Below, one piece after another: positions 1 to 10,395 of a stretch of DNA of 10,445 nucleotides (position 1 is the stretch's first letter; every line of letters begins with the position of its first letter). Source of the stretch: a virus; the UHGV virus genome UHGV-0096675; one strand, given 5' to 3'. The position numbers and the translations under genes were made by a program. Under the pieces are notes generated by a model. That model saw only the letters and a list, made by a program, of their open reading frames with translations, ran no database searches and had not been told where the DNA came from.

Positions 1-417
1 GCGTAGACGGTCGATATCCTTCAGGATGCGTTTTTTACGCAGGTGTGCTTCGTCGATAATCAGCAGATCGATATTTTCAGGAAAAACACGACGAATAAGC
101 GTGTCGGCGCTGGCAATCTGAATTTTCCGGTCCGGATCGTTGTTCGGGTGATCCGCCCAGATATAACCGATTTCATCCCCCGGTAACCCGTACTCCACGA
201 ACCGATTAGCCGTCTGACCGATCAGGATGGTGTACGGTGCACAGAACAGGACACGCATACCACGGCTGACAAACCCGGCAACGATGAAGGCGGCCAAACC
301 CGTTTTACCGCTACCGGTTGGCGAGTACACCATGAAGGTGTCGTTTGCCTTCCAGTCACGGCGCAACATGTTTAGCGCTCGTTCCTGTGCAAAATTCGGC
401 GTGATCGTCAGCTCCAT
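1..417 (-). CDS. DEAD/DEAH-box (SF2) helicase, N-terminal part; 3' end of gene lies beyond window start
   Basis: Minus-strand ATG at 417..415 opens a frame that runs to position 1 with no stop (absent from the ORF track because it has no stop in the window). Translation MELTITPNFAQERALNMLRRDWKANDTFMVYSPTGSGKTGLAAF...LLIIDEAHLRKK carries Walker A (SPTGSGKT) and a DEAH-type Walker B (IIDEAH). It sits in the replication-gene position of the rightward early operon. Confidence 0.8.
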   Translation of the reverse strand, partial: MELTITPNFAQERALNMLRRDWKANDTFMVYSPTGSGKTGLAAFIVAGFVSRGMRVLFCAPYTILIGQTANRFVEYGLPGDEIGYIWADHPNNDPDRKIQIASADTLIRRVFPENIDLLIIDEAHLRKKRILKDIDRLR

Positions 418-734
418 TGTGCTGCCCCCGTGCTGATGAGATAATCATTTTGTGATGTGGTTTTCATGGATTCCCCCTCACATGGCTGGTGGCCTCCCCA
501 AAGGCTGCCAGCCCCACTTCTGATTCAGCTCCTCTGAAAAATCACTCTTCCAGGAAGAACCCTTTTCGTTTCTCAGCGCCTGAGCGCTTTGTACTACCTT
601 GCTGATACAGGCGTTTTTTTAAATTGCGCCCTTAAGACAGTGATCTACTTAACCAATGGATCTCTCCTGTTGGAAAAGCCCCTATTCCTGCCCCTACACC
701 CAATCCCCCCTTACCCCCCTTTCCCTCTTCCCCA

Positions 735-759
735 TAAAAACGTACTACTTCCCTAGTAC
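735..759 (-). terminator. Weak putative intrinsic terminator downstream of the cII-position gene
   Basis: On the minus strand, hairpin GTACTA/TAGTAC (plus coordinates 742-747 and 754-759, 6-nt loop) is followed by a 5-T run (complement of A736-740). The stem is AT-rich and therefore weak. Confidence 0.3.
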
Positions 760-845
760 ATATGAGGAGTTGGGTCAGTTGGTTGCCAACCTGAACAGGC
801 GCCTTTAAGCCTGCTTCTGTTCGGGTACCTTTAAACCCGAAACAA

Positions 846-1142
846 TCAGGAGCGCGATTGCGTTCCAGCCAGGGGAGGTTCGGCGGTATACCCCTGTAAA
901 GCCCTGCCCTGATTTCTCACAAACAGGCGAAGCCTTGTGTTTGCTTCATGCCTTGCCCGGTTCTCCTTGCGGTACGAAACGGGTTCGGCCTCGAACGTCT
1001 CCTGATACACAGCTGCATAACGCTGGATAGCTTTTTGTCGTGCAGTTGGTGTCAGGCTAAGTAACTGCTGCTTAATCCACTCGGCATCCGCTTGGCTAAA
1101 ATCGGAAGGTAAGATGCTGAGTAACTCAGGCGCTGGTTTCAT
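846..1142 (-). CDS. Hypothetical protein in the cII position (possible lysis-lysogeny regulator), function unknown
   Basis: ORF track minus ORF 846..1178; the track start at 1178 is a TTG, and the first ATG is at 1142 (MKPAPELLSILPSDF...). It overlaps the 3' end of cro by 17 nt and lies immediately downstream of cro as cII does in lambda. No motif recognised with certainty. Confidence 0.55.
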   Translation of the reverse strand: MKPAPELLSILPSDFSQADAEWIKQQLLSLTPTARQKAIQRYAAVYQETFEAEPVSYRKENRARHEANTRLRLFVRNQGRALQGYTAEPPLAGTQSRS

Positions 1143-1332
1143 CGCTTCGCCGCTTAGATGGGAATGCTTTGTTTTCAAAAGCTGAAACAGTCCCTTCCTC
1201 AGAAATCACAACAAAGATTTCCCGACCGGCTCTTAATGCTTTGCTTATGGCAATTTGCGTTACTCCGAGCGCTGCGCCAGCTCTTACCTGGCCGTGCTCT
1301 TTCACGTATTCCTTAAGAGTAATCTGGTTCAT
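1126..1332 (-). CDS. cro: Cro repressor (lambda Cro family)
   Basis: 68-aa product MNQITLKEYVKEHGQVRAGAALGVTQIAISKALRAGREIFVVISEEGTVSAFENKAFPSKRR... aligns by eye along its whole length with lambda Cro ([66 protein letters not shown]). RBS GAGGA lies 5 nt upstream of the ATG on the minus strand. It is divergent from cI. Confidence 0.9.
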   Translation of the reverse strand: MNQITLKEYVKEHGQVRAGAALGVTQIAISKALRAGREIFVVISEEGTVSAFENKAFPSKRRSDETSA

Positions 1333-1424
1333 ACGTCCTCTACGATTAAATACTACTAAAAGTATTAAAATGAAGGGTACTATAGGTAGGAGACATAATC
1401 AAACTTTTGGTATTAAATCAGCCC
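1333..1424. promoter_or_regulatory. OR-like divergent promoter/operator region with three 11-bp dyad sites (TACT-N3-AGTA) at 24-bp spacing
   Basis: Sites at 1354-1364 TACTAAAAGTA (perfect dyad), 1378-1388 TACTATAGGTA (1 mismatch) and 1402-1412 AACTTTTGGTA (2 mismatches), with starts exactly 24 bp apart. -10-like TATTAA at 1411-1416 sits just upstream of the cI ATG, suggesting a leaderless or short-leader PRM-like start. Confidence 0.6.
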
Positions 1425-2126
1425 ATGGAAAAGAAAAGCAGATTGACCACAGAGCAGCTTCAAGACGCAACGCGTCTAAAAGCTTTGTATGACTCGAAGA
1501 AAAAGGAGTTAGGGATCACGCAGGCTGATATGGCTGACGAACTGGACATATCTCAAGGTGCGGTCGGTCACTACCTGAATGGGCGAAACCCACTGAATCT
1601 TCCAGTTGCAGCAAAGTTTGCGAAACTGCTTCATGAGCCGATTTCGAGTTTCAGCCCCGCTCTTGCTAAAGAAGCTGAGCTGTTATCTCAGGTATCAAAC
1701 GTTACTTATCATGGCCCGGCCAAGCCGCGAGGGACATACCCGCTTATTAGCTGGGTAAGTGCTGGAGCATGGTGTGAGGCTATAGAACCGTACACACTCA
1801 AAGACATTGATGAATGGTACGATTCCGATGCACACATTGAAGGTCAAGGGTTCTGGTTAAAAGTCCAGGGAGACTCAATGACTTCTCCTGTTGGTATGAG
1901 CATACCTGAAGGCATGTACGTTTTAGTCGACACCGGAAAAGAGCCAATCAATGGGAGTTTAGTTGTTGCCAAGCTTACCGACGCTAACGAAGCGACATTT
2001 AAAAAGCTTGTAATCGACGCTGGAAAAACTTACCTCAAGCCATTGAATCCTCAGTATCCTCTCATCCCAATCAACGGCAATTGCAGGATCATCGGTGTCG
2101 TTGTTCAAGCTATGATGTGGCTCTGA
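1425..2126 (+). CDS. cI: CI repressor (lambda CI family; N-terminal HTH plus C-terminal S24 LexA-like autopeptidase domain)
   Basis: ORF track 1407..2126 begins at a TTG; the ATG at 1425 gives MEKKSRLTTEQLQDATRLKALYDSKKKELGITQ..., matching the lambda CI N-terminus ([34 protein letters not shown]). Ala-Gly cleavage site (VSAGAW), catalytic Ser (QGDSMTSP) and Lys (TFKKL) are present, and the C-terminus ...PLNPQYPLIPIN... matches lambda ...PLNPQYPMIPCN.... Confidence 0.92.
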   Translation: MEKKSRLTTEQLQDATRLKALYDSKKKELGITQADMADELDISQGAVGHYLNGRNPLNLPVAAKFAKLLHEPISSFSPALAKEAELLSQVSNVTYHGPAKPRGTYPLISWVSAGAWCEAIEPYTLKDIDEWYDSDAHIEGQGFWLKVQGDSMTSPVGMSIPEGMYVLVDTGKEPINGSLVVAKLTDANEATFKKLVIDAGKTYLKPLNPQYPLIPINGNCRIIGVVVQAMMWL

Positions 2127-2144
2127 TTTAGCTACTAACAGTAC

Positions 2145-2176
2145 AAAGCCTGTCCTCTCGACAGGCTTTTTTTTAT
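2145..2176 (+). terminator. Rho-independent terminator downstream of cI
   Basis: Perfect 8-bp stem AGCCTGTC (2147-2154) / GACAGGCT (2160-2167) with a 5-nt loop, extendable by two A-T pairs, followed by a run of 8 T. Confidence 0.8.
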
Positions 2177-2218
2177 TTCTTTACATTTCAACAAGTAAGC
2201 ATTCAACCAACACAAAAC

Positions 2219-2260
2219 TATACTTTTAGTATTGCAGATACTAAAACATCTAGTATTATT
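2219..2260 (+). promoter_or_regulatory. PL-like early promoter with CI-type operator dyads
   Basis: Perfect dyad TACTTTTAGTA at 2221-2231 is the reverse complement of the OR site at 1354-1364. A second partial site AACATCTAGTA lies at 2245-2255, 24 bp downstream. -35 TTGCAG (2232-2237), 16-nt spacer, -10 TATTAT (2254-2259), so the operators flank and overlap the promoter. Confidence 0.55.
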
Positions 2261-2291
2261 CATTTCATCGGCAAATAACGGAGCTAGTGAG

Positions 2292-2612
2292 ATGACGACT
2301 AACCCTACAATCAAAAAATTATATCAGCTTGTTGATATACCAGATTTTCGCTACAGCAAAGATTGTTCAAGTATTGATTATGGAGATATTGCATCAGATT
2401 GCGATACTAAAACAGTGTCTATCTTTGAAGCTATAAACCATATTAGCTTAAACATTTTTTCCATTGCAGAAGATAAAGAAATCAGCAAAGAAAAGATATT
2501 AAACCTTTCCTGTATCATCGCTGACCTTACTGAAATTGGAATGGCGACCAATAAAATTGGTCAAGCAGCATCATACCTTTCCGGATTAAAGGATGGCAAT
2601 CATGGCTCATGA
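2292..2612 (+). CDS. Hypothetical small mildly acidic protein (106 aa), AT-rich early gene
   Basis: ATG at 2292 (the track start at 2232 is a TTG inside the promoter) with GGAG about 10 nt upstream. Product MTTNPTIKKLYQLVDIPDFRYSKDCSSIDYGD... has no recognised domain. Base composition is visibly much more AT-rich than the flanking prophage genes. Confidence 0.55.
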   Translation: MTTNPTIKKLYQLVDIPDFRYSKDCSSIDYGDIASDCDTKTVSIFEAINHISLNIFSIAEDKEISKEKILNLSCIIADLTEIGMATNKIGQAASYLSGLKDGNHGS

Positions 2613-2796
2613 ATTCTCGTTAGAACAAGCAAAAGAAAAAGCTCATCAGGCAGAAATAATCTGCCTAATGATGGAGGCATACCCAAATAAAATGGATGAT
2701 TCAGAAATCGAGGCAATAGCATCTTTATTAAGCAAGTTAACCGGGGATGTTTGTGCCTGGTTAATTGAAGAGCAAGCCATTAGATCCAACGCTTAG
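2602..2796 (+). CDS. Hypothetical small acidic protein (64 aa), AT-rich early gene
   Basis: ATG at 2602 with AAGGA 8 nt upstream (the track start at 2593 abuts the RBS). It overlaps the upstream gene's stop (2610-2612). Product MAHEFSLEQAKEKAHQAEIICLMMEAYPNKMDDSEIEAIASLL... is Glu/Asp-rich. Confidence 0.5.
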   Translation: MAHEFSLEQAKEKAHQAEIICLMMEAYPNKMDDSEIEAIASLLSKLTGDVCAWLIEEQAIRSNA

Positions 2797-2867
2797 TTTT
2801 TTTAGATTCCTAAATAAATAACAGCTTTATTGCTGAGGGGATTCCATACACTTTTTTAGGAAAAACC

Positions 2868-2966
2868 ATGATAAACATCAACGCCTTTAAGACTGCAAAG
2901 TTATTTTGTTCAGCCGGTTACTGGGATATCGCGAATTTATATCTTAGGAAAGCATACGGGAGATAA
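2868..2966 (+). CDS. Possible small ORF (32 aa), uncertain
   Basis: ATG at 2868 with AGGA 6 nt upstream; MININAFKTAKLFCSAGYWDIANLYLRKAYGR; stop TAA at 2964-2966, 3 nt before the next gene. Below the ORF-track length cutoff; supported only by RBS and context. Confidence 0.2.
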   Translation: MININAFKTAKLFCSAGYWDIANLYLRKAYGR

Positions 2967-2969
2967 ATC

Positions 2970-3194
2970 ATGTCAACACAAGATCGCCAAGACGTGCAAG
3001 GTGTGAATATTAAAGCTGAACAACTTAACTTCCTCATGCAAACAATTCACGCTCACCATAAGGATTTTGACTGCCATCAACTTGACGGCCTTTTAGGTCT
3101 GGCTTATGACCTTGCCGGGTCGGTATATAGCTGGACCGAGGAAGAGGAAAGGATCGTATTAGCAAATGAAGATGCACAACGAAAGGTGTATTAA
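2970..3194 (+). CDS. Hypothetical protein (74 aa)
   Basis: ATG at 2970 with GGGAG upstream. First gene of a tightly packed, translationally coupled chain. No recognised domain. Confidence 0.6.
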   Translation: MSTQDRQDVQGVNIKAEQLNFLMQTIHAHHKDFDCHQLDGLLGLAYDLAGSVYSWTEEEERIVLANEDAQRKVY

Positions 3195-3560
3195 ATGGAT
3201 AATTTAATCACTACGTATCGCCGACGAATTTTAAAGGCTGCGTTATTACGCCACCAGCGTAAAACCGGAAGCACCTGCATCATTATTAATATGCCTAAAG
3301 AGGGGATAAACACTGTCGAATTAACAGAAATACTGCTTGATGGTCTGTTGAGACGATTCGAAAAGTTGGCTCTCAGTGAATACGGGAATATTGACGGCGT
3401 AAAAGCCATCAGAGGAATTTACAGCAACGCCGTAGATGTGAATGGCAGCGGTGAGTTCCTGACAGAAAGCGGAAAGGCATTAATCGACGATCTCATTGCT
3501 GAGCTGGTCGAGTTCGCCAAGAAACAAAAATCAGTCACAGCGGAGACAAGCCATGAGTGA
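3195..3560 (+). CDS. Hypothetical protein (121 aa)
   Basis: ATG at 3195 immediately follows the upstream stop TAA (3192-3194); AAAGG RBS upstream. No recognised domain. Confidence 0.6.
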   Translation: MDNLITTYRRRILKAALLRHQRKTGSTCIIINMPKEGINTVELTEILLDGLLRRFEKLALSEYGNIDGVKAIRGIYSNAVDVNGSGEFLTESGKALIDDLIAELVEFAKKQKSVTAETSHE

Positions 3561-3765
3561 TCAGACACCAATTATCACGCACGAACCAGTAAATATCGTG
3601 CTGACAATCGAGAACGGGAAGGTTATCCACACGCGGCCGGTACATAACGGCGAGGTTACTGCATCGCTGGAGACGTTTTTATGGATGGCTGAACAAGCCG
3701 GTTACACGATCACCCCACCTGCAGGAGAGAAGGACAATGGCCCTGACAGCGATACGAATTCCTGA
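3553..3765 (+). CDS. Hypothetical protein (70 aa)
   Basis: ATG at 3553 (the track start at 3496 is a TTG) overlaps the upstream stop (ATGAGTGA) with GGAG 7 nt upstream. MSDQTPIITHEPVNIVLTIENGKVIHTRPVHNGEV.... Confidence 0.5.
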   Translation: MSDQTPIITHEPVNIVLTIENGKVIHTRPVHNGEVTASLETFLWMAEQAGYTITPPAGEKDNGPDSDTNS

Positions 3766-3955
3766 GTGGGTGCACCTGCAGGCGGTCCATGTCCTCCGCC
3801 AGTTCAGAGCCAAGCGTATTCATCCCTGCCGTATGCACGGCTCCGGAAACCTGAGCCTGAGGGTTAATCGCCGCTGGCGGCTGCTGTCCCGAGACGGTGG
3901 CCAGAACTGGGAAGTAATGAGCCATGAACGATACAGCAAACTGAAGGACAGATAA
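3737..3955 (+). CDS. Hypothetical basic Arg/Trp-rich protein (72 aa); weak resemblance to RelE/HigB-type toxin C-terminal region (speculative)
   Basis: ATG at 3737 preceded by GGAGAGAAGGA; codon third positions are GC-rich as in neighbouring genes. ...IHPCRMHGSGNLSLRVNRRWRLLSRDGGQNWEVMSHERY resembles, by eye only, the conserved C-terminal region of HigB-like toxins. Confidence 0.45.
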   Translation: MALTAIRIPEWVHLQAVHVLRQFRAKRIHPCRMHGSGNLSLRVNRRWRLLSRDGGQNWEVMSHERYSKLKDR

Positions 3956-4050
3956 TGAAAGCATTCTTCCTTTCTCTGCTGTTTGGCCTGTTGCTGGTGT
4001 CCGTCGTGTTCGGCGCGCTGATTGAGTACAAATTTTTGATGAATTTCTGA
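3955..4050 (+). CDS. Small hydrophobic single-pass membrane peptide (31 aa)
   Basis: ATG at 3955 overlaps the upstream stop (TAATG) with AAGGA 7 nt upstream. MKAFFLSLLFGLLLVSVVFGALIEYKFLMNF is about 21 consecutive hydrophobic residues followed by a short charged tail. Its stop overlaps the next start (TGATG). Below the ORF-track length cutoff. Confidence 0.4.
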   Translation: MKAFFLSLLFGLLLVSVVFGALIEYKFLMNF

Positions 4051-4484
4051 TGGTGTTCAAGATGGCAAAAGATTTTTTCGACGTGGCGAGAGTACCCGCG
4101 GATCGCGTTGCAGCGAGGGTAATCAGTAAGGGCATTGATTGGCAGCCAAACAAAAAACGCGAGCAGGGGGATAGCGAAACACCACTCCCTACTCTTGATA
4201 TAAATCAAATGGACCGAACGCAGCGGGAACAGTTTGATTTATTCCAAGGGAGAACTTTCGGGCGAATGACCGTAATTGGGATCGCCGCTATCAAACAAGG
4301 CGACAGTATGCGTTACGTGGTTCGTTGCGCCTGCGGTACATACACATATCGGAGAGCAAAGGCGATTAAAAATCCGAAGAACAACATGGATTGCTGTGAT
4401 TACTGTAGACATCTGCTGCATTTGAAAAGGAATGAAATCCATCGCCGAACAGGTAAAAACCTCAAGTGGGAGGATTTGCCGTGA
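4050..4484 (+). CDS. Hypothetical protein with putative Cys-cluster zinc ribbon (144 aa)
   Basis: ATG at 4050, coupled to the upstream peptide gene. C-terminal cysteine cluster ...RCACGTYTYRRAKAIKNPKNNMDCCDYCRH... (CxC...CCxxC). An alternative start is ATG 4062. Confidence 0.5.
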   Translation: MVFKMAKDFFDVARVPADRVAARVISKGIDWQPNKKREQGDSETPLPTLDINQMDRTQREQFDLFQGRTFGRMTVIGIAAIKQGDSMRYVVRCACGTYTYRRAKAIKNPKNNMDCCDYCRHLLHLKRNEIHRRTGKNLKWEDLP

Positions 4485-4789
4485 CTAAACACCAAGACAT
4501 TATTAATCGCTGGACCCGTTTAGCGGTGGAGGCCAAAGAGCTGGGGCTCGCCACCATTCCCATCGACCCGGAAAAAATGTTGATGGTACTGGGGGAGCTG
4601 CCGTCCAGTTCGGCGGAAAAGTCCGCCGATTGCCAGAATGACTATCAGGCTGCGATCGACATCTTGCGCGACAGAGCTGCTCGCGAACTAGATGGTGGTT
4701 TTCGCGCTCATCACAACGCCCTGATTTATGCCGCTAATGAACTGGAAAATGCCCAGGCTTTCGGGCAGGAGGTCAGCCATGAGTCTTGA
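4481..4789 (+). CDS. Hypothetical protein (102 aa)
   Basis: GTG at 4481 with strong RBS GGGAGGA 7 nt upstream, overlapping the upstream stop (GTGA). The ORF-track start at 4466 is another in-frame GTG without an RBS. Confidence 0.5.
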   Translation: MTKHQDIINRWTRLAVEAKELGLATIPIDPEKMLMVLGELPSSSAEKSADCQNDYQAAIDILRDRAARELDGGFRAHHNALIYAANELENAQAFGQEVSHES

Positions 4790-4988
4790 CTGTGTACCCC
4801 TTTCTACGTACTGCAGGGACGCGGGGGAAACGGTAGAAGCCGTTAACAAACGGATACAAAGGGGGTTATGGAAGGAGGGAGTACATGTATTAAAAGTCGA
4901 TGGCGTTAAAGAACGCTGGATTGACTTAACGGAGGTTTCGAAGTGGGCAAGAAAGAACAAGGATCATTATCTCTCCCAAGAGGAATAA
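4779..4988 (+). CDS. xis: Excisionase (Xis-like, recombination directionality factor)
   Basis: ATG at 4779 with GGAGG 8 nt upstream. The 69-aa product MSLDCVPLSTYCRDAGETVEAVNKRIQRGLWKEGVHVLKVDGVKERWIDLTEVSKWARKNK... is a small basic protein directly upstream of int and overlapping it by 46 nt, as xis does in lambdoid phages. Confidence 0.65.
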   Translation: MSLDCVPLSTYCRDAGETVEAVNKRIQRGLWKEGVHVLKVDGVKERWIDLTEVSKWARKNKDHYLSQEE

Positions 4989-6115
4989 CCATCCGCCAGC
5001 ATAAAACTGGCGACACTCTGGTTATCACTTTCACATACAAAGGGGTTCTGTGCCGGGAGCCCCTCTCCAAAATGGAAGCAAACGCGCGCGGTGTGAAGTA
5101 CGCCGAGCGCCTGCTCGGGGAGATACAAAACCAGATCGTCAGTGGCACCTTTGAATATGCGAAATATTTCCCCAACTCCAAAAAACTGGAGCTTTTCGGG
5201 GGGGTGAAGAAAACCAAAAACATAAAGTCTTACCTGGACGAGTACCTGAAAATCTGCCAGAACCGCAACCTGTCCCCGTCGACTATCAACGGTTATGAAA
5301 AATGCCTGTCGGCGCTGTCAGCCCTGCATAAACTCCACGTGTCAGAACTGACGCCAGCGGTCCTTAAAAACTGGATAGCCAGCCGGAAAACAAAGCTGAA
5401 AACGACCAGGAATAACCTTTCGTTTCTGCGCAGCGCCATCGATGAAGCTGTTACGGATGGCCTGCTGACCATTAACCCGGTAACCCTCGTCAGCGCCAGC
5501 CGGTACCACGTGATCGACAGCAGCCCGAGCGCCGACGATTACGAGGTTGACCCGTTCACGCCAGCGGAAACCCTCGCCATTTACCAGAGCTGCAGGTACC
5601 CGGAATGGGAAAACCTGTTCCGCTTTGCTTTCAATACCGGTCTGCGGAGCTCCGAACTGTGCGCGCTGCGCTGGCCTGATCTCGACACCATCGCGAACAC
5701 AGCCCACGTTCAGGCGGCCAGTGTCGTAGGGGTACTTAAAGGCACCAAGACAAAAGCCGGTACCCGTAAGGTGGAGCTGAACAGTGAGGCGCTGGCGGCC
5801 CTGCAGGCGCAGAAGCAATACACCTTTATGAAAAGTGAGTTCATATTCAGCGACCCGAAAACGGGAGAACCCTGGGCGAACGCCGACGCTATCCGTAAAA
5901 AAGCATGGGTGCCGACCCTGAAAAAAGCTGGCGTGCGCTATCGTAACCCGTACCAGACGCGGCACACATTCGCCACCAAGCATATTAGCCAGGGCGTTAA
6001 CCTCTTCTGGCTTGCCGGACAGATGGGCCACAAAGGACCGGAAATGATATTCCGCAACTACGGTAAATACCTGGCTGAATATGACGGTAAAACCGCGATT
6101 TCAGCCGCGCTGTAG
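4943..6115 (+). CDS. int: Tyrosine integrase (lambda Int family) of the lambdoid prophage
   Basis: GTG start at 4943 with GGAGG 7 nt upstream; 390 aa. Carries the conserved tyrosine-recombinase catalytic region (...GLRSSELCALRW..., ...RHTFATKHISQG..., ...FRNYGKYLAEY...). Its 3' end points at the ssrA-type att core, the lambda-like arrangement. Confidence 0.92.
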   Translation: MGKKEQGSLSLPRGITIRQHKTGDTLVITFTYKGVLCREPLSKMEANARGVKYAERLLGEIQNQIVSGTFEYAKYFPNSKKLELFGGVKKTKNIKSYLDEYLKICQNRNLSPSTINGYEKCLSALSALHKLHVSELTPAVLKNWIASRKTKLKTTRNNLSFLRSAIDEAVTDGLLTINPVTLVSASRYHVIDSSPSADDYEVDPFTPAETLAIYQSCRYPEWENLFRFAFNTGLRSSELCALRWPDLDTIANTAHVQAASVVGVLKGTKTKAGTRKVELNSEALAALQAQKQYTFMKSEFIFSDPKTGEPWANADAIRKKAWVPTLKKAGVRYRNPYQTRHTFATKHISQGVNLFWLAGQMGHKGPEMIFRNYGKYLAEYDGKTAISAAL

Positions 6116-6237
6116 CGGGGGAAATATTTCAAAATGTTGGACAGAATCAGGACGTTAGACAGACCTCAATATGCACGTAAAATGCACTTGAGGTATATAA
6201 CAGCAAGAGAATTGTTTATTTTCAATGAGTTAAATAC

Positions 6238-6274
6238 ATTTCGGACGCGAGTTCAACTCCCGCCAGCTCCACCA
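6238..6274 (+). other. ssrA (tmRNA) 3'-end fragment: acceptor/T-arm copy ending in CCA, serving as an att core and element junction
   Basis: ATTTCGGACGCGAGTTCAACTCCCGCCAGCTCCACCA matches the 3' terminus of enterobacterial tmRNA as I recall it (...AUUUCGGACGCGGGUUCAACUCCCGCCAGCUCCACCA) except for one G-to-A change. No upstream tmRNA body is present: the int stop is only 122 bp upstream. Confidence 0.8.
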
Positions 6275-6308
6275 AATATTGATGTACTGAAGTTCAGTAA
6301 AGTCTACT

Positions 6309-6342
6309 AAGCCCGCACAGCACAAGCTCTGCGGGCTTTTTT
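6309..6342 (+). terminator. Rho-independent terminator downstream of the ssrA fragment
   Basis: 9-bp stem AAGCCCGCA (6309-6317) / TGCGGGCTT (6330-6338) with a 12-nt loop, followed by a T-run through 6342. Confidence 0.7.
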
Positions 6343-6360
6343 ACGTCTATTGTAGTCTAG

Positions 6361-6436
6361 TGAGAATTGCTGAGAACTACGAGTTATGGCACCCTGAATG
6401 GGACCCACGAAGATGGGTCCTAAAATCGAGGGTCCC
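6361..6436. promoter_or_regulatory. Repeat cluster in the intA leader (candidate regulator or integrase binding sites)
   Basis: Direct repeat TGAGAA at 6361-6366 and 6371-6376. Inverted repeats GGGACCC (6400-6406) and GGGTCCC (6430-6436), with a third near-copy GGGTCC at 6415-6420. The region is open in the ORF track (GTG 6360) but lies upstream of the homology-supported ATG at 6441. Confidence 0.3.
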
Positions 6437-6440
6437 AAAC

Positions 6441-7670
6441 ATGGCCAAAATCGCTAAGAAGCTCACTGACACTGAAATCAAAAGCACCAAACCTGCCGAA
6501 AAAGAGGTTAACCTTTTTGACGGCGATGGTTTGCTGTTGCGAATCGCTCCCCTGGCGAAGGGAGGGAAGAAAAATTGGTATTTCAGATATGCAGTGCCTG
6601 TGACCAAAAAGCGAACTAAGGTGAGCTTAGGAACCTATCCTCACCTTACACTTGCGAAGGCACGAGCTTTACGTGATGAATACTTGTCGTTGCTTACAAA
6701 TGGTATAGACCCCCAAGTTCATAACAACCAAAAAGCCAATGCACTGAAAGATGCCACGGAACATACATTTCAAGCAGTAGCCAAGAAGTGGCTTGATGAG
6801 AAAGTCAAAACGTCAGGCATCTCCCAAGATCATGCTAACGACATCTGGCGAAGCCTAGAGAGAAATATCTTTTCCACATTGGGTGATACCCCAATTAAGG
6901 AGATTCGCCCTAAAATGCTTAAACAGCATTTAGAACCCATAGAAAAACGAGGTGTCCTTGAAACACTTCGCCGCATCATATCCCGCCTGAATGAAATTTT
7001 CCGCTATGCAGCAACAGAAGAACTCATAGAATTCAACCCGGCAGACAACCTGGGGCAACGGTTCAGCAAGCCAAAAAAACAGAATATGCCAGCATTACCC
7101 CCTTCCGAACTCCCTCGCTTCTTGGTTGCTCTAAACAATGCTTCTATCCGTTTGGAAACAAGGCTACTGATTGAGTGGCAACTTCTCACATGGGTTCGCC
7201 CAGGTGAAGCTGTTCGCACAAGATGGTCAGATATTGATATTGAAACTGGCATGTGGAACATCCCGGCGGAGTTTATGAAAATGAAGAAGCCTCACAAAGT
7301 TCCACTGAGCAAAGAAGCTTTGCGAGTTTTGGATTTAATGAAAGTCATCAGCGGGCATAGAGAGTGGGTGTTCCCCAGTATCAAAGCTCCACTCAATCAC
7401 ATGCATGAACAAACAGCTAATGCGGCCATAATCCGTATGGGTTTCGGAGGTGAGCTTGTAGCTCACGGTATGCGATCCATTGCTAGAACGGCTGCTGAGG
7501 AGTCTGGCAAGTTTAGGACTGATGTCTTAGAAGCCGCCCTTGCCCACTCGAAGAAAGATGAAATAATTGCAGCCTACAATCGTGCAGAGTATCTCACTGA
7601 ACGGGTGGTTCTCATGCAATGGTGGAGTGACTATGTTTCGTCTCAAAAATGCAAAGTTATTGCCGCATAA
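6441..7670 (+). CDS. intA: Tyrosine integrase, P4-like IntA family (CP4-57 IntA-like)
   Basis: ATG at 6441 with GAGGG 8 nt upstream. The product MAKIAKKLTDTEIKSTKPAEKEVNLFDGDGLLLRIA...DIWRSLERNIF...ALETLRRI...MWQLLT...HGMRSIARTA...LEAALAH...AYNRAEYL...MQWWSDYV aligns by eye, from memory, with E. coli CP4-57 IntA. The track start at GTG 6360 adds 27 residues not supported by that alignment. Confidence 0.9.
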   Translation: MAKIAKKLTDTEIKSTKPAEKEVNLFDGDGLLLRIAPLAKGGKKNWYFRYAVPVTKKRTKVSLGTYPHLTLAKARALRDEYLSLLTNGIDPQVHNNQKANALKDATEHTFQAVAKKWLDEKVKTSGISQDHANDIWRSLERNIFSTLGDTPIKEIRPKMLKQHLEPIEKRGVLETLRRIISRLNEIFRYAATEELIEFNPADNLGQRFSKPKKQNMPALPPSELPRFLVALNNASIRLETRLLIEWQLLTWVRPGEAVRTRWSDIDIETGMWNIPAEFMKMKKPHKVPLSKEALRVLDLMKVISGHREWVFPSIKAPLNHMHEQTANAAIIRMGFGGELVAHGMRSIARTAAEESGKFRTDVLEAALAHSKKDEIIAAYNRAEYLTERVVLMQWWSDYVSSQKCKVIAA

Positions 7671-7952: not shown

Positions 7953-9509
7953 ATGGCTAGCGAAAATGAAAAAAATCATAGAGTTAGGGTCGCGCAGTAC
8001 TTGAGGATGTCTACCGACCATCAGCAATATTCTTTACATAATCAGTCCGAATATATCAAAGATTATGCTGAAAAGAACAATATGGAAATCGCTTATACCT
8101 ACGATGATGCAGGTAAGAGCGGAGTCAGTATCGTAGGCAGGCATTCTTTGCAGCAGTTACTTAGCGATGTAGAACAAAAGAAAATAGATATACAGGCTGT
8201 ATTATTTTATGATGTGAGCCGTTTTGGTCGTTTTCAAAATAGTGATGAAGCGGCATATTATTCCTTTCTATTTGAGAGAAATGGTGTAGATCTTATATAT
8301 TGTTCCGAACCTATACCCACTAAAGATTTCCCTTTAGAGTCCTCTGTTATACTGAATATAAAAAGATCTAGTGCTGCATATCACAGCAGGAATCTATCTG
8401 AAAAGGTATTTATAGGGCAAGTAAATTTAATAAAGCTTGGTTATCATCAAGGCGGTATGGCTGGTTATGGGCTGAGACGTCTTTTAGTAGACGAAAATGG
8501 CATAGCTAAAGAAATATTGAGTTTCCGCAAAAGAAAGAGTATTCAAACAGATAGGGTAATATTAATTCCGGGACCAAAAAATGAAATAAAAATTGTAAAT
8601 AGAATATATGATCTCTTTATAGATAATAACGTCCCAGAATTCATTATTGCTGAGAGATTAAATGAACAGAACATACCTGCAGAAAATGGAACATTATGGA
8701 CTCGTGCAAAAATACATCAAATTTTGACAAATGAAAAATATATTGGAAACAACATATATAACAAAACCTCATCTAAATTAAAAAGTAGGCTTGTAAAAAA
8801 CCCCAAACATGAATGGGTTAGATGTGACAAGGCATATAAACCTATTATTTCAAAGAAAAAATACAATAAAGCTCAAGAAATAATTCAGCTCCGATCCATT
8901 CATTTGACTAATGAAGATCTATTAGAAAAACTAAAACAAAAATTAGAATCTAATGGAAAACTATCAGGCTTTATCATTGATGAAGATGATACAGGCCCTT
9001 CATCTTCTGTTTATAGAACCCGATTTGGTGGTCTTTTAAGAGCATATACTTTGATTGGTTATAAGCCAGAACATGATTACAGCTATCTCAAAATAAATGA
9101 AGCACTAAGATCATTTTACTCAGAGATAATTGAGGATTTTAAGGGTGAAATTTTAAAAAGTAACTGTCATATAGACGAGTATAAATATGCCCCAATGCTT
9201 TACATCAATGATGAGTTTTTAATTTCCGTCCTTGTTACTAAATGCATACATATGAAATCAGGTAAACTTAGATGGAAAGTCCGGTTTGATAACTCACAGA
9301 AAGCAGACATAACAATTGTTATACGAATGAATTCACAAAATATTTCACCTCTTGATTTTTATATCATACCAAAGATTGAAAACGAATATAATAAAATGTG
9401 CATGACGGAAACAAACAACATTCGATTAGATCTCTATAGATTTGATAATCTTGATAAACTTCTACAAATTATTACTCGCATGAAAGTGAGGGAACTATAT
9501 GCTGCCTGA
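7953..9509 (+). CDS. Large serine recombinase-like protein (resolvase/invertase N-terminal catalytic domain plus recombinase domain; no canonical zinc ribbon seen)
   Basis: ATG at 7953 with GAGG 8 nt upstream; 518 aa. N-terminus RVAQYLRMSTDHQQYSLHNQ fits the serine-recombinase catalytic motif (Y-x-R-x-S-T-x-x-Q), and ...IQAVLFYDVSRFGRF... fits the conserved D-x-S-R-x-x-R motif. GGMAGYGL resembles the start of the recombinase domain. No CxxC pairs are present. Confidence 0.85.
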   Translation: MASENEKNHRVRVAQYLRMSTDHQQYSLHNQSEYIKDYAEKNNMEIAYTYDDAGKSGVSIVGRHSLQQLLSDVEQKKIDIQAVLFYDVSRFGRFQNSDEAAYYSFLFERNGVDLIYCSEPIPTKDFPLESSVILNIKRSSAAYHSRNLSEKVFIGQVNLIKLGYHQGGMAGYGLRRLLVDENGIAKEILSFRKRKSIQTDRVILIPGPKNEIKIVNRIYDLFIDNNVPEFIIAERLNEQNIPAENGTLWTRAKIHQILTNEKYIGNNIYNKTSSKLKSRLVKNPKHEWVRCDKAYKPIISKKKYNKAQEIIQLRSIHLTNEDLLEKLKQKLESNGKLSGFIIDEDDTGPSSSVYRTRFGGLLRAYTLIGYKPEHDYSYLKINEALRSFYSEIIEDFKGEILKSNCHIDEYKYAPMLYINDEFLISVLVTKCIHMKSGKLRWKVRFDNSQKADITIVIRMNSQNISPLDFYIIPKIENEYNKMCMTETNNIRLDLYRFDNLDKLLQIITRMKVRELYAA

Positions 9510-10395
9510 AAAAAATGAATTCCCAATAATTCAAATTGAGATTGCAAAAATAAAATTTCTTAACCCACGAACAAGAAATAAGGTAGTGCATGAAGAAATA
9601 AAGGAAAGCATAAAAAAAAGAGGATTAAGCAAGCCTATAAGCGTAAGAGCTATTGATGAAGGCGATTTCAAATATGCTTTAATTTGTGGTCAAGGGAGAA
9701 TAGAGGCTCTCGTTGCATTAGGTGAAACTATTATTCCAGCAATTATAAGAGATGTATCAGAAGAAGATGCTTACGTTATGAGTTTAGTTGAAAACATTGC
9801 AAGGAGAAGACCACGTTCTAATGAGTTATTACAGGTGATTAAAGACATGAAAATCAGAGGACTTTCAGACTCCGAAATAAGTGAGATTACTGGATATTCA
9901 TCGAACTGGGTGAGCAGTATTAATATGCTACTTGATAAGGGAGAGCATAAACTTCTCTCAGCAGTCGAACGGGGTAATTTGCCTCTGTATCTCGCAGTGC
10001 AATTTGCAAGATGTGAAACTGAGGAAGCACAAGATATTCTTACCGAAGCATATGATAAAAAATTAATAAAAAGTCGGGACATTATAAAGATAAAACACAT
10101 TCTAAATCAAAGAACAGTTGGGAATAAAGGTGCAAAAGCAGCCGGATTTTATTATCACAAACCATCAAAAAGGATGACTTCAGAGGAGTTGATTGAGCTT
10201 TATGAAAATAGTATCGCTGAACATAAATCTGTTTATAACAACTCAAAATTCATAAAAACCAACCTACTAATAGTAAATGAGATTTTTAACATCATAATGA
10301 TGAATAAAAGCTTTCAACATATACTTGAACAAGAGAATCTTTCAGAACTACCATCTCAGATATTAACCCCAGTAAACAAAGAGGTATTAAAATGA
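9499..10395 (+). CDS. ParB/Srx-like N-terminal domain protein with HTH (divergent ParB box: GQGRIEAL instead of GERRxRA)
   Basis: ATG at 9499 overlaps the recombinase stop (ATGCTGCCTGA) with GAGGG 7 nt upstream; 298 aa. ...PISVRAIDEGDFKYALICGQGRIEALVALGETIIPAIIRDVSEEDAYVMSLVENIARR... matches ParB N-terminal domain architecture, followed by an HTH-like segment (LSDSEISEITGYSSNWVSSINMLL). The C-terminal 100 or so residues are uncharacterised. Confidence 0.8.
   Translation: MLPEKNEFPIIQIEIAKIKFLNPRTRNKVVHEEIKESIKKRGLSKPISVRAIDEGDFKYALICGQGRIEALVALGETIIPAIIRDVSEEDAYVMSLVENIARRRPRSNELLQVIKDMKIRGLSDSEISEITGYSSNWVSSINMLLDKGEHKLLSAVERGNLPLYLAVQFARCETEEAQDILTEAYDKKLIKSRDIIKIKHILNQRTVGNKGAKAAGFYYHKPSKRMTSEELIELYENSIAEHKSVYNNSKFIKTNLLIVNEIFNIIMMNKSFQHILEQENLSELPSQILTPVNKEVLK

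Follow-up and report, generated by a model that had tools for sequence, protein, structure and literature searches.

The spacer between the two integrase genes of this DNA is, in all likelihood, a hybrid attachment site, in which the attR of a temperate phage integrated in ssrA is joined to the attL of an IntA-type island that was already resident there. The window (the whole stretch of DNA that was analysed) comprises the first 10,445 nt of an 18.8-kb metagenome contig (sample ERZ826963) with about 3.4x coverage, the contig starting at window position 1. A previous reading of the sequence alone, hereafter the sequence-only reading, had placed the int end at 6115, the intA start at 6441, a spacer of 325 bp between them and a distance of 122 bp from the int stop to a copy of the ssrA 3'-end, and all of these values were exact when the open reading frames were checked. 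Each of the two elements carries its own integrase gene (4943-6115 and 6441-7670), and the 325 nt that separate them (6116-6440) contain the following features:

6116 to 6237, plus strand: P arm of the phage, which is the attP arm nearest to int and here makes up the left side of the prophage attR, recognised by its homology to the int-core interval in LMessi, 25-07338, DX6 and E94
6129 to 6145 and 6147 to 6163: direct repeats in the P arm
6238 to 6250, plus strand: phage-borne ssrA-like extension with 12 matches and the A6250 mismatch, outside the exchanged segment
6251 to 6274, plus strand: common core GTTCAACTCCCGCCAGCTCCACCA, from the tmRNA T loop through the CCA end, identical in attB, attP, attL and attR
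6275 to 6440, plus strand: left arm of the island, between the end of ssrA and the first base of the integrase gene, nearly identical to that of WCHEC020031
6309 to 6342, plus strand: intrinsic terminator carried by the island, with 13-nt arms (6309-6321 and 6326-6338) that are 92% complementary and a T run
6388 to 6436, plus strand: GGSACCC repeats, candidate arm sites of the island integrase, with direct copies from 6388 and 6400, an opposite-strand copy from 6430 (palindrome GGGTCCC) and TGGGTCC at 6414-6420

Positions 6238-6274 (ATTTCGGACGCGaGTTCAACTCCCGCCAGCTCCACCA) correspond to the final 37 nt of E. coli ssrA with 36 of 37 matches, the mismatch being A6250, where the gene has G. This 37-mer had a single match in the window when up to three mismatches were allowed and none in 200 shuffled sequences, and it lies on the plus strand, in the orientation that ssrA has in the tandem genome E94. 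As had been proposed, it stands outside any complete tmRNA gene: ARAGORN found none in the window, the Rfam tmRNA model RF00023 reached 20.8 bits on the window, below its threshold of 47, and to the left of the fragment lies sequence with homology to the LMessi attP arm. The 37-nt copy described earlier is present with its one mismatch, but the working core is a block of 24 bp (6251-6274) and not of 37. An ORF of 58 aa at 6134-6310 was treated as spurious, because its halves come from different elements (phage arm, core and island flank).

Within tmRNA, the 24-bp block comprises the T loop together with the 3' half of the T stem, and extends over the acceptor 3' strand with CCA; it was found with four combinations of flanks:

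attB, in WCHEC020031: ...gcgG, 24 bp, aatattg
attP, in the IMG/VR contigs L009 and L019, with a variant in LMessi: ...gcgA, 24 bp, cttttgatagg
attL, in 25-07338 and E94: ...gcgG, 24 bp, cttttga
attR, in the window: ...gcgA, 24 bp, aatattg

Since all four att flanks sort as expected, the strand exchange of the phage is confined to 6251-6274, and the block fits the combined T-loop / T-acceptor junction class of Islander (PMC4383910). The P' arm bears a terminator-like hairpin 121 nt past ssrA, which is the replacement hairpin in lysogens. In the free Escherichia phage LMessi, int, P arm, core and P' arm follow in this order and are succeeded by tail genes. A ATGCACGTAAAATGCAC motif is found in both the P arm and the P' arm, and the phage-side repeats contain GTTRGAC; both the P-arm repeats and ATGCACGTAAAATGCAC are candidate arm-type or accessory sites for the phage integrase. 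Together, the four sites constitute a clean natural att set for a family of phage integrases targeting ssrA, with an exchange window of 24 bp, and could serve anyone in need of an integrase with a defined and conserved enterobacterial target.

The A at 6250 was shared by the attP contigs L009 and L019 and by the lysogens 25-07338 and DX6 at their attR; at the attL of these two lysogens, which holds the intact ssrA, the base was G. A6250 is a marker brought by the phage, and it stays out of the working ssrA gene. Other variants to the left of the core were found in the LMessi and E94 phages. A core with this A variant, in which A replaces G in the T stem, was likewise seen behind a second, unrelated phage arm (...AACAATATTTTTCAGYAAGTTATATCGTT) in the IMG/VR contigs L007, L010, L016 and L023-L025, as well as in Trabulsiella odontotermitis (L039) and Enterobacter soli (L040), so that the variant is common to different ssrA-targeting phages.

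To the left of the spacer, the window contains these phage genes:

1126 to 1332, minus strand: Cro (PF09048)
1407 to 2126: cI-like gene with HTH_3 and Peptidase_S24 domains
4779 to 4988, plus strand: xis (excisionase), 69 aa, matching phrog_2917 with E = 1.1e-40 and overlapping the int start
4943 to 6115, plus strand: phage tyrosine integrase, 390 aa, with the Pfam domains Arm-DNA-bind_2 and Phage_integrase and a match to the phrog_1 integrase

The Cro gene and the cI-like repressor gene upstream of int mark this side of the window as belonging to a temperate phage, of which it comprises the early and integration region. The 69-aa gene at 4779-4988 was likewise called in the source contig. The phage integrase differed by 3 aa from that of the 25-07338 prophage, which is the closest complete prophage and bears genes for baseplate J, a sheath initiator and a spike. 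The difference from the integrase of the E94 prophage was 45 aa; this prophage is a more distant relative with a lambda-like, non-contractile tail and HK97 capsid, tape-measure and gpJ genes. Genes for a non-contractile lambda-like tail were not found within the window. The term lambdoid, used for this phage in the sequence-only reading, suits the regulatory and integration traits in the window (divergent cI/cro, and a xis-int pair beside att) but not the tail, which is contractile in the closest complete prophage. The contractile tail of the 25-07338 prophage and the lambda-like one of the E94 prophage show that the int-att module passes between phage types, a clear module exchange. The rest of the phage genome was mosaic, with a best match of 95.7% identity across 81% of window positions 1-6280.

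Some further observations were made in the phage region. A single ssrA int-attP module was seen on phages with differing structural genes (L038, corresponding to 25-07338; L001 and L003, to E94; L035, to LMessi). The interval between the repressor gene and xis contains a homologue of ParE-like toxins (PF24732) at 3737-3955 and, at 4050-4484, a 144-aa protein with a weak match to HNH endonucleases (phrog_374). Rfam matches to rnk_pseudo and suhB at 2093-2183 were set aside as due to chance, being sub-threshold (E about 0.8-0.9) and lying mostly on a terminator hairpin.

On the other side of the spacer, the island begins with the following genes:

6441 to 7670, plus strand: P4-family (IntA-like) tyrosine integrase, 409 aa, with the Pfam domains Arm-DNA-bind_3, Phage_int_M and Phage_integrase
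7953 to 9509, plus strand: large serine recombinase, 518 aa, with the Pfam domains Resolvase and Recombinase
9499 to 10395, plus strand: ParB-like protein with the Pfam domains ParB_N and RepB

The left limit of the island was evident from comparison with WCHEC020031, which carries the island only: from 6238 to the window end there were 4 differences in 3563 nt, A6250 being one of them. In every comparison the island started directly after CCACCAA, and the sequence past CCACCAA varied among strains with a different downstream neighbour. The terminator that had been noticed within the spacer is indeed there, as a hairpin with a T run and a fold energy of -20.4 kcal/mol. WCHEC020031 has it at the same position, directly after ssrA, so that it is the ssrA terminator in island-only strains; it belongs to the island and not to the phage or the chromosome. 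Before the ATG of the integrase gene, the arm of the CP4-57 type (L005 12036-12088) has a layout matching that of the GGSACCC repeats, with two direct copies and one inverted, the motif being TAGGCACCT instead. The heptamers differ by IntA type and their layout is kept, as expected of arm sites that evolve with the integrase.

The island integrase was 100% identical to WP_001062342.1 and scored 444.6 bits with the NCBIfam model NF007246 (cut-off 434). The name P4-like IntA island, given to the element from the sequence alone, agrees with this score and with the P4-family domains, but the protein shares only 49% identity with the CP4-57-type IntA and so is a member of the P4 family rather than an IntA orthologue. 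Neither are the two integrases unrelated, as had been stated: they are distant tyrosine recombinases of different subfamilies, with 25% identity over 235 aa (E = 1e-5) and different arm-binding domains.

The order of recombinase and then ParB after the integrase gene was also found in WCHEC020031 and E94. Beyond the window (L036 10392-16115), the island encodes a type I restriction-modification system, and two adjacent ParB/RepB-like proteins of 298 aa were counted in all. Since site-specific recombinases of two families, tyrosine and serine, occur together in the island, it may consist of one element nested in another. PADLOC assigned no defence system to the recombinase and ParB-like genes of the island or to the two accessory ORFs of the phage, its sole match being a weak, methyltransferase-like one on the second ParB-like protein.

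The spacer could alternatively encode a small RNA of its own, similar to IsrM of Salmonella, that starts at a promoter-like sequence (6156-6183), includes the tmRNA fragment and ends with the island terminator. The promoter-like sequence (TAGACA-16-TAAAAT) has 10 of 12 matches, the terminator is strong, and a partial Rfam match to IsrM was obtained at 6265-6342 (E = 2e-10). However, this match to RF02763 scored 46.3 bits, the gathering score being 376, with 272 model positions missing, and its alignment consisted of 8 nt of the 5'-end and the terminator only; promoter-like sites numbered 2, when 0.9 were expected from shuffled sequences; and the left and right parts of the presumed RNA come from different elements that meet only in tandem strains, and do not make up a conserved unit. 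An RNA gene in the spacer is accordingly a decidedly unlikely reading. The match at 6265-6342 aligned the first 8 and the last 50 or so positions of the model, and the terminator of the island is nearly identical to that of IsrM, which suggests that the 3'-end of IsrM comes from the ssrA-replacement terminator of IntA-type islands.

In view of the coverage of only about 3.4x of the source metagenome contig, the assembly could have used the shared core to link a phage end and an ssrA-island flank that belong to different strains. The exact pairing of this phage variant with the island was absent from the complete E. coli genomes, where the best sequence across the junction was 89.9% identical, and a scan of one genome per species gave no exact match for an A-variant core joined to the island flank, the core by itself being present in Trabulsiella odontotermitis and Enterobacter soli. 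Against this, an independent metagenome contig assembled from another sample (L037, ERZ28657433) carried an identical junction, with 0 mismatches in 2247 nt and reaching 31 nt into the island flank, and the same architecture was found in finished genomes with a related phage (E94 and DX6). A shared block of 24-37 nt is also shorter than typical assembly k-mers. With an identical contig from an unrelated sample and the recurrence in finished genomes, an assembly chimera is very unlikely, its probability being close to negligible, and the junction is real.

The sequence-only reading had taken phage and island for separate elements, not one element with two att copies, and complete E. coli genomes with the island only, with the phage only and with both in tandem all exist. 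In WCHEC020031 (island only), smpB is followed by an intact ssrA, a 100%-identical 409-aa integrase, the serine recombinase and ParB. In 25-07338 (phage only), an intact ssrA is followed by a 39-kb prophage, int, a core fragment and then ypjA. In E94 (tandem), a related prophage of about 40 kb is situated between an intact ssrA at its far end and the same island, and in DX6 the same phage arm adjoins a CP4-57-type integrase. The 28 IMG/VR contigs with an A-variant core had 12 different right flanks: CP4-57-type in 13 of them, the ypjA side in 2, attP (P' arm) in 2, and nine others in the remaining 11; the window-type P arm met most of these flanks. The phage P arm was present in 17 of 5426 complete genomes. 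When the junction was used as query, 521 E. coli records matched at an identity of at least 99%, the best of these covering the island half only.

The data could also be read as a single composite element with two integrases and only two att copies, the internal ssrA fragment being a fossil. The integrase genes are co-oriented and 325 nt apart, and the related genomes showed no att copy delimiting the island. Nevertheless, phage-only and island-only genomes are known, the integration module of the free phage LMessi has the core as its end, and next to it come the P' arm and tail genes rather than the island, and the flanks sort into the clean att quartet, so that this reading is already contradicted and retains next to no probability. 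The window therefore holds the ends of two independent elements.

The hybrid site can be accounted for by a few steps. The attP of the phage holds a copy of the tmRNA 3'-end, and the phage integrase swapped strands inside 6251-6274. The intact ssrA, about 39-40 kb away in the related genomes, would have kept the bacterial 5' part of the gene and gained the P' arm with the replacement terminator, and the displaced 3' fragment, now behind the P arm and A6250, would have stayed joined to the island. The island terminator (6309-6342) no longer ends ssrA and probably blocks read-through from xis-int into the integrase gene of the island. It may act as an insulator between the two int genes, from which a block rather than a coupling is expected.

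The parsimonious order has the island arriving before the phage. Arrival in the reverse order, with the phage in ssrA first and the island entering later into the displaced 3' fragment at the phage attR, is conceivable, because a second element can enter either of the restored cores of an occupied site (PMC7192596), and A6250, located to the left of both crossover windows, is uninformative in this respect. However, the island is common after an intact ssrA and nearly identical there (the 521 records and the 4 differences in 3563 nt mentioned above), whereas the phage arm is rare (17 genomes) and stands beside many different neighbours. Furthermore, the island is shortened by IS elements and lacks an attR in the related genomes, which speaks for a long-established, fixed element and against a recent arrival. 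The reverse order is consequently unlikely, and insertion of the phage next to a resident island is preferred.

The island has a length of about 17 kb in WCHEC020031 and E94, where it ends in IS elements by the ygaQ pseudogene. No att copy was detected at its far end in these two genomes, either as an exact 11-mer or as a 21-mer match with up to 4 mismatches. The source contig was retrieved as L036 (16.1 of 18.8 kb), and the far end of the island lies beyond this part. At least in WCHEC020031 and E94, the island is a fixed remnant, and its current mobility is doubtful. Cross-mobilisation of the tandem elements had been put forward from the sequence alone; with the IS truncation and without a far-end att copy in the related genomes, it is unlikely and has to be considered speculative. 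We give a slim chance to the idea that the two elements are functionally coupled, with the phage mobilising or destabilising the island, or that they produce, in tandem strains only, a chimeric small RNA made of a phage promoter, the tmRNA fragment and the terminator. Were it true, phage induction would drive transcription or recombination across the core and could remove or destabilise an island that has no far-end att of its own. Nothing beyond the adjacency of the genes supports such coupling or such an RNA.

Among known systems, the island side of the junction can be compared with the cryptic prophage CP4-57 (IntA/AlpA) of E. coli K-12. There, as here, a P4-family integrase gene co-oriented with ssrA starts about 165-200 nt past its CCA end, and the element supplies the terminator and has repeated heptamers just before the integrase start. 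The CP4-57 core, which is the last 15 nt of ssrA (attL CCGCCAGCTCCACCA, attR CCGCCAGC-CCACCA), falls within the 24 bp used by the phage. The cargo of CP4-57 is entirely different from that of the island in the window, with its serine recombinase, two ParB-like proteins and type I restriction-modification system, and no alpA was seen in the window. Because of its position after CCACCAA, its P4-family integrase and the location of the K-12 CP4-57 core within the 24 bp, the island probably uses the last 15 nt or so of the same core (6260-6274). The proposal that both elements use the same tmRNA core is thus borne out for the phage by the att quartet, and for the island it follows from position and from the likeness to CP4-57.

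The two elements differ in that CP4-57 keeps a 14-nt attR without T357, whereas the window-type island has no attR in the related genomes. Excision of CP4-57 removes T357 of ssrA and inactivates tmRNA (PMC10107115), and the K-12 att cores, with an attR that lacks T357, agree with this published loss. The far-end copy of CP4-57 in K-12 (L041 22673-22686) does not have T357, the T is present in the fragment that the phage has displaced in 25-07338 (L004 12234-12258), and both copies are followed by an identical ypjA-side flank, indicating that the T357 deletion is specific to the attR of CP4-57 and does not belong to the ancestral site.

On the phage side, LMessi and the ssrA prophages of 25-07338, DX6 and E94 share the same module of int, P arm, core and P' arm and the same 24-bp site. 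Junctions of the same type are present, though unannotated, in finished E. coli genomes. The analysis sets exact boundaries, the phage ending and the island beginning within 6251-6274, and assigns the terminator and the repeats before the integrase gene to the island, in a type of arrangement that gene callers and island finders often merge; its significance beyond annotation is small.

As a whole, the arrangement resembles the tandem arrays described by Islander/TIGER. Islander recorded 125 arrays of at least two elements, the tmRNA gene being the most enriched target (PMC4383910). Unlike the resolved Islander arrays, the one described here has a second member without a detectable terminal fragment in the related genomes, and a strict rule might not count the island. 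As in those arrays, a displaced 3' fragment lies between the elements, each of which has its own tyrosine integrase, and in the related genomes E94 and 25-07338 the intact target gene is at the outer end. Tandem arrays of diverse integrative elements at tRNA and tmRNA genes are already textbook knowledge, those at the tmRNA gene having ample precedent in enterobacteria, and the present arrangement does not differ in kind from the known ones.
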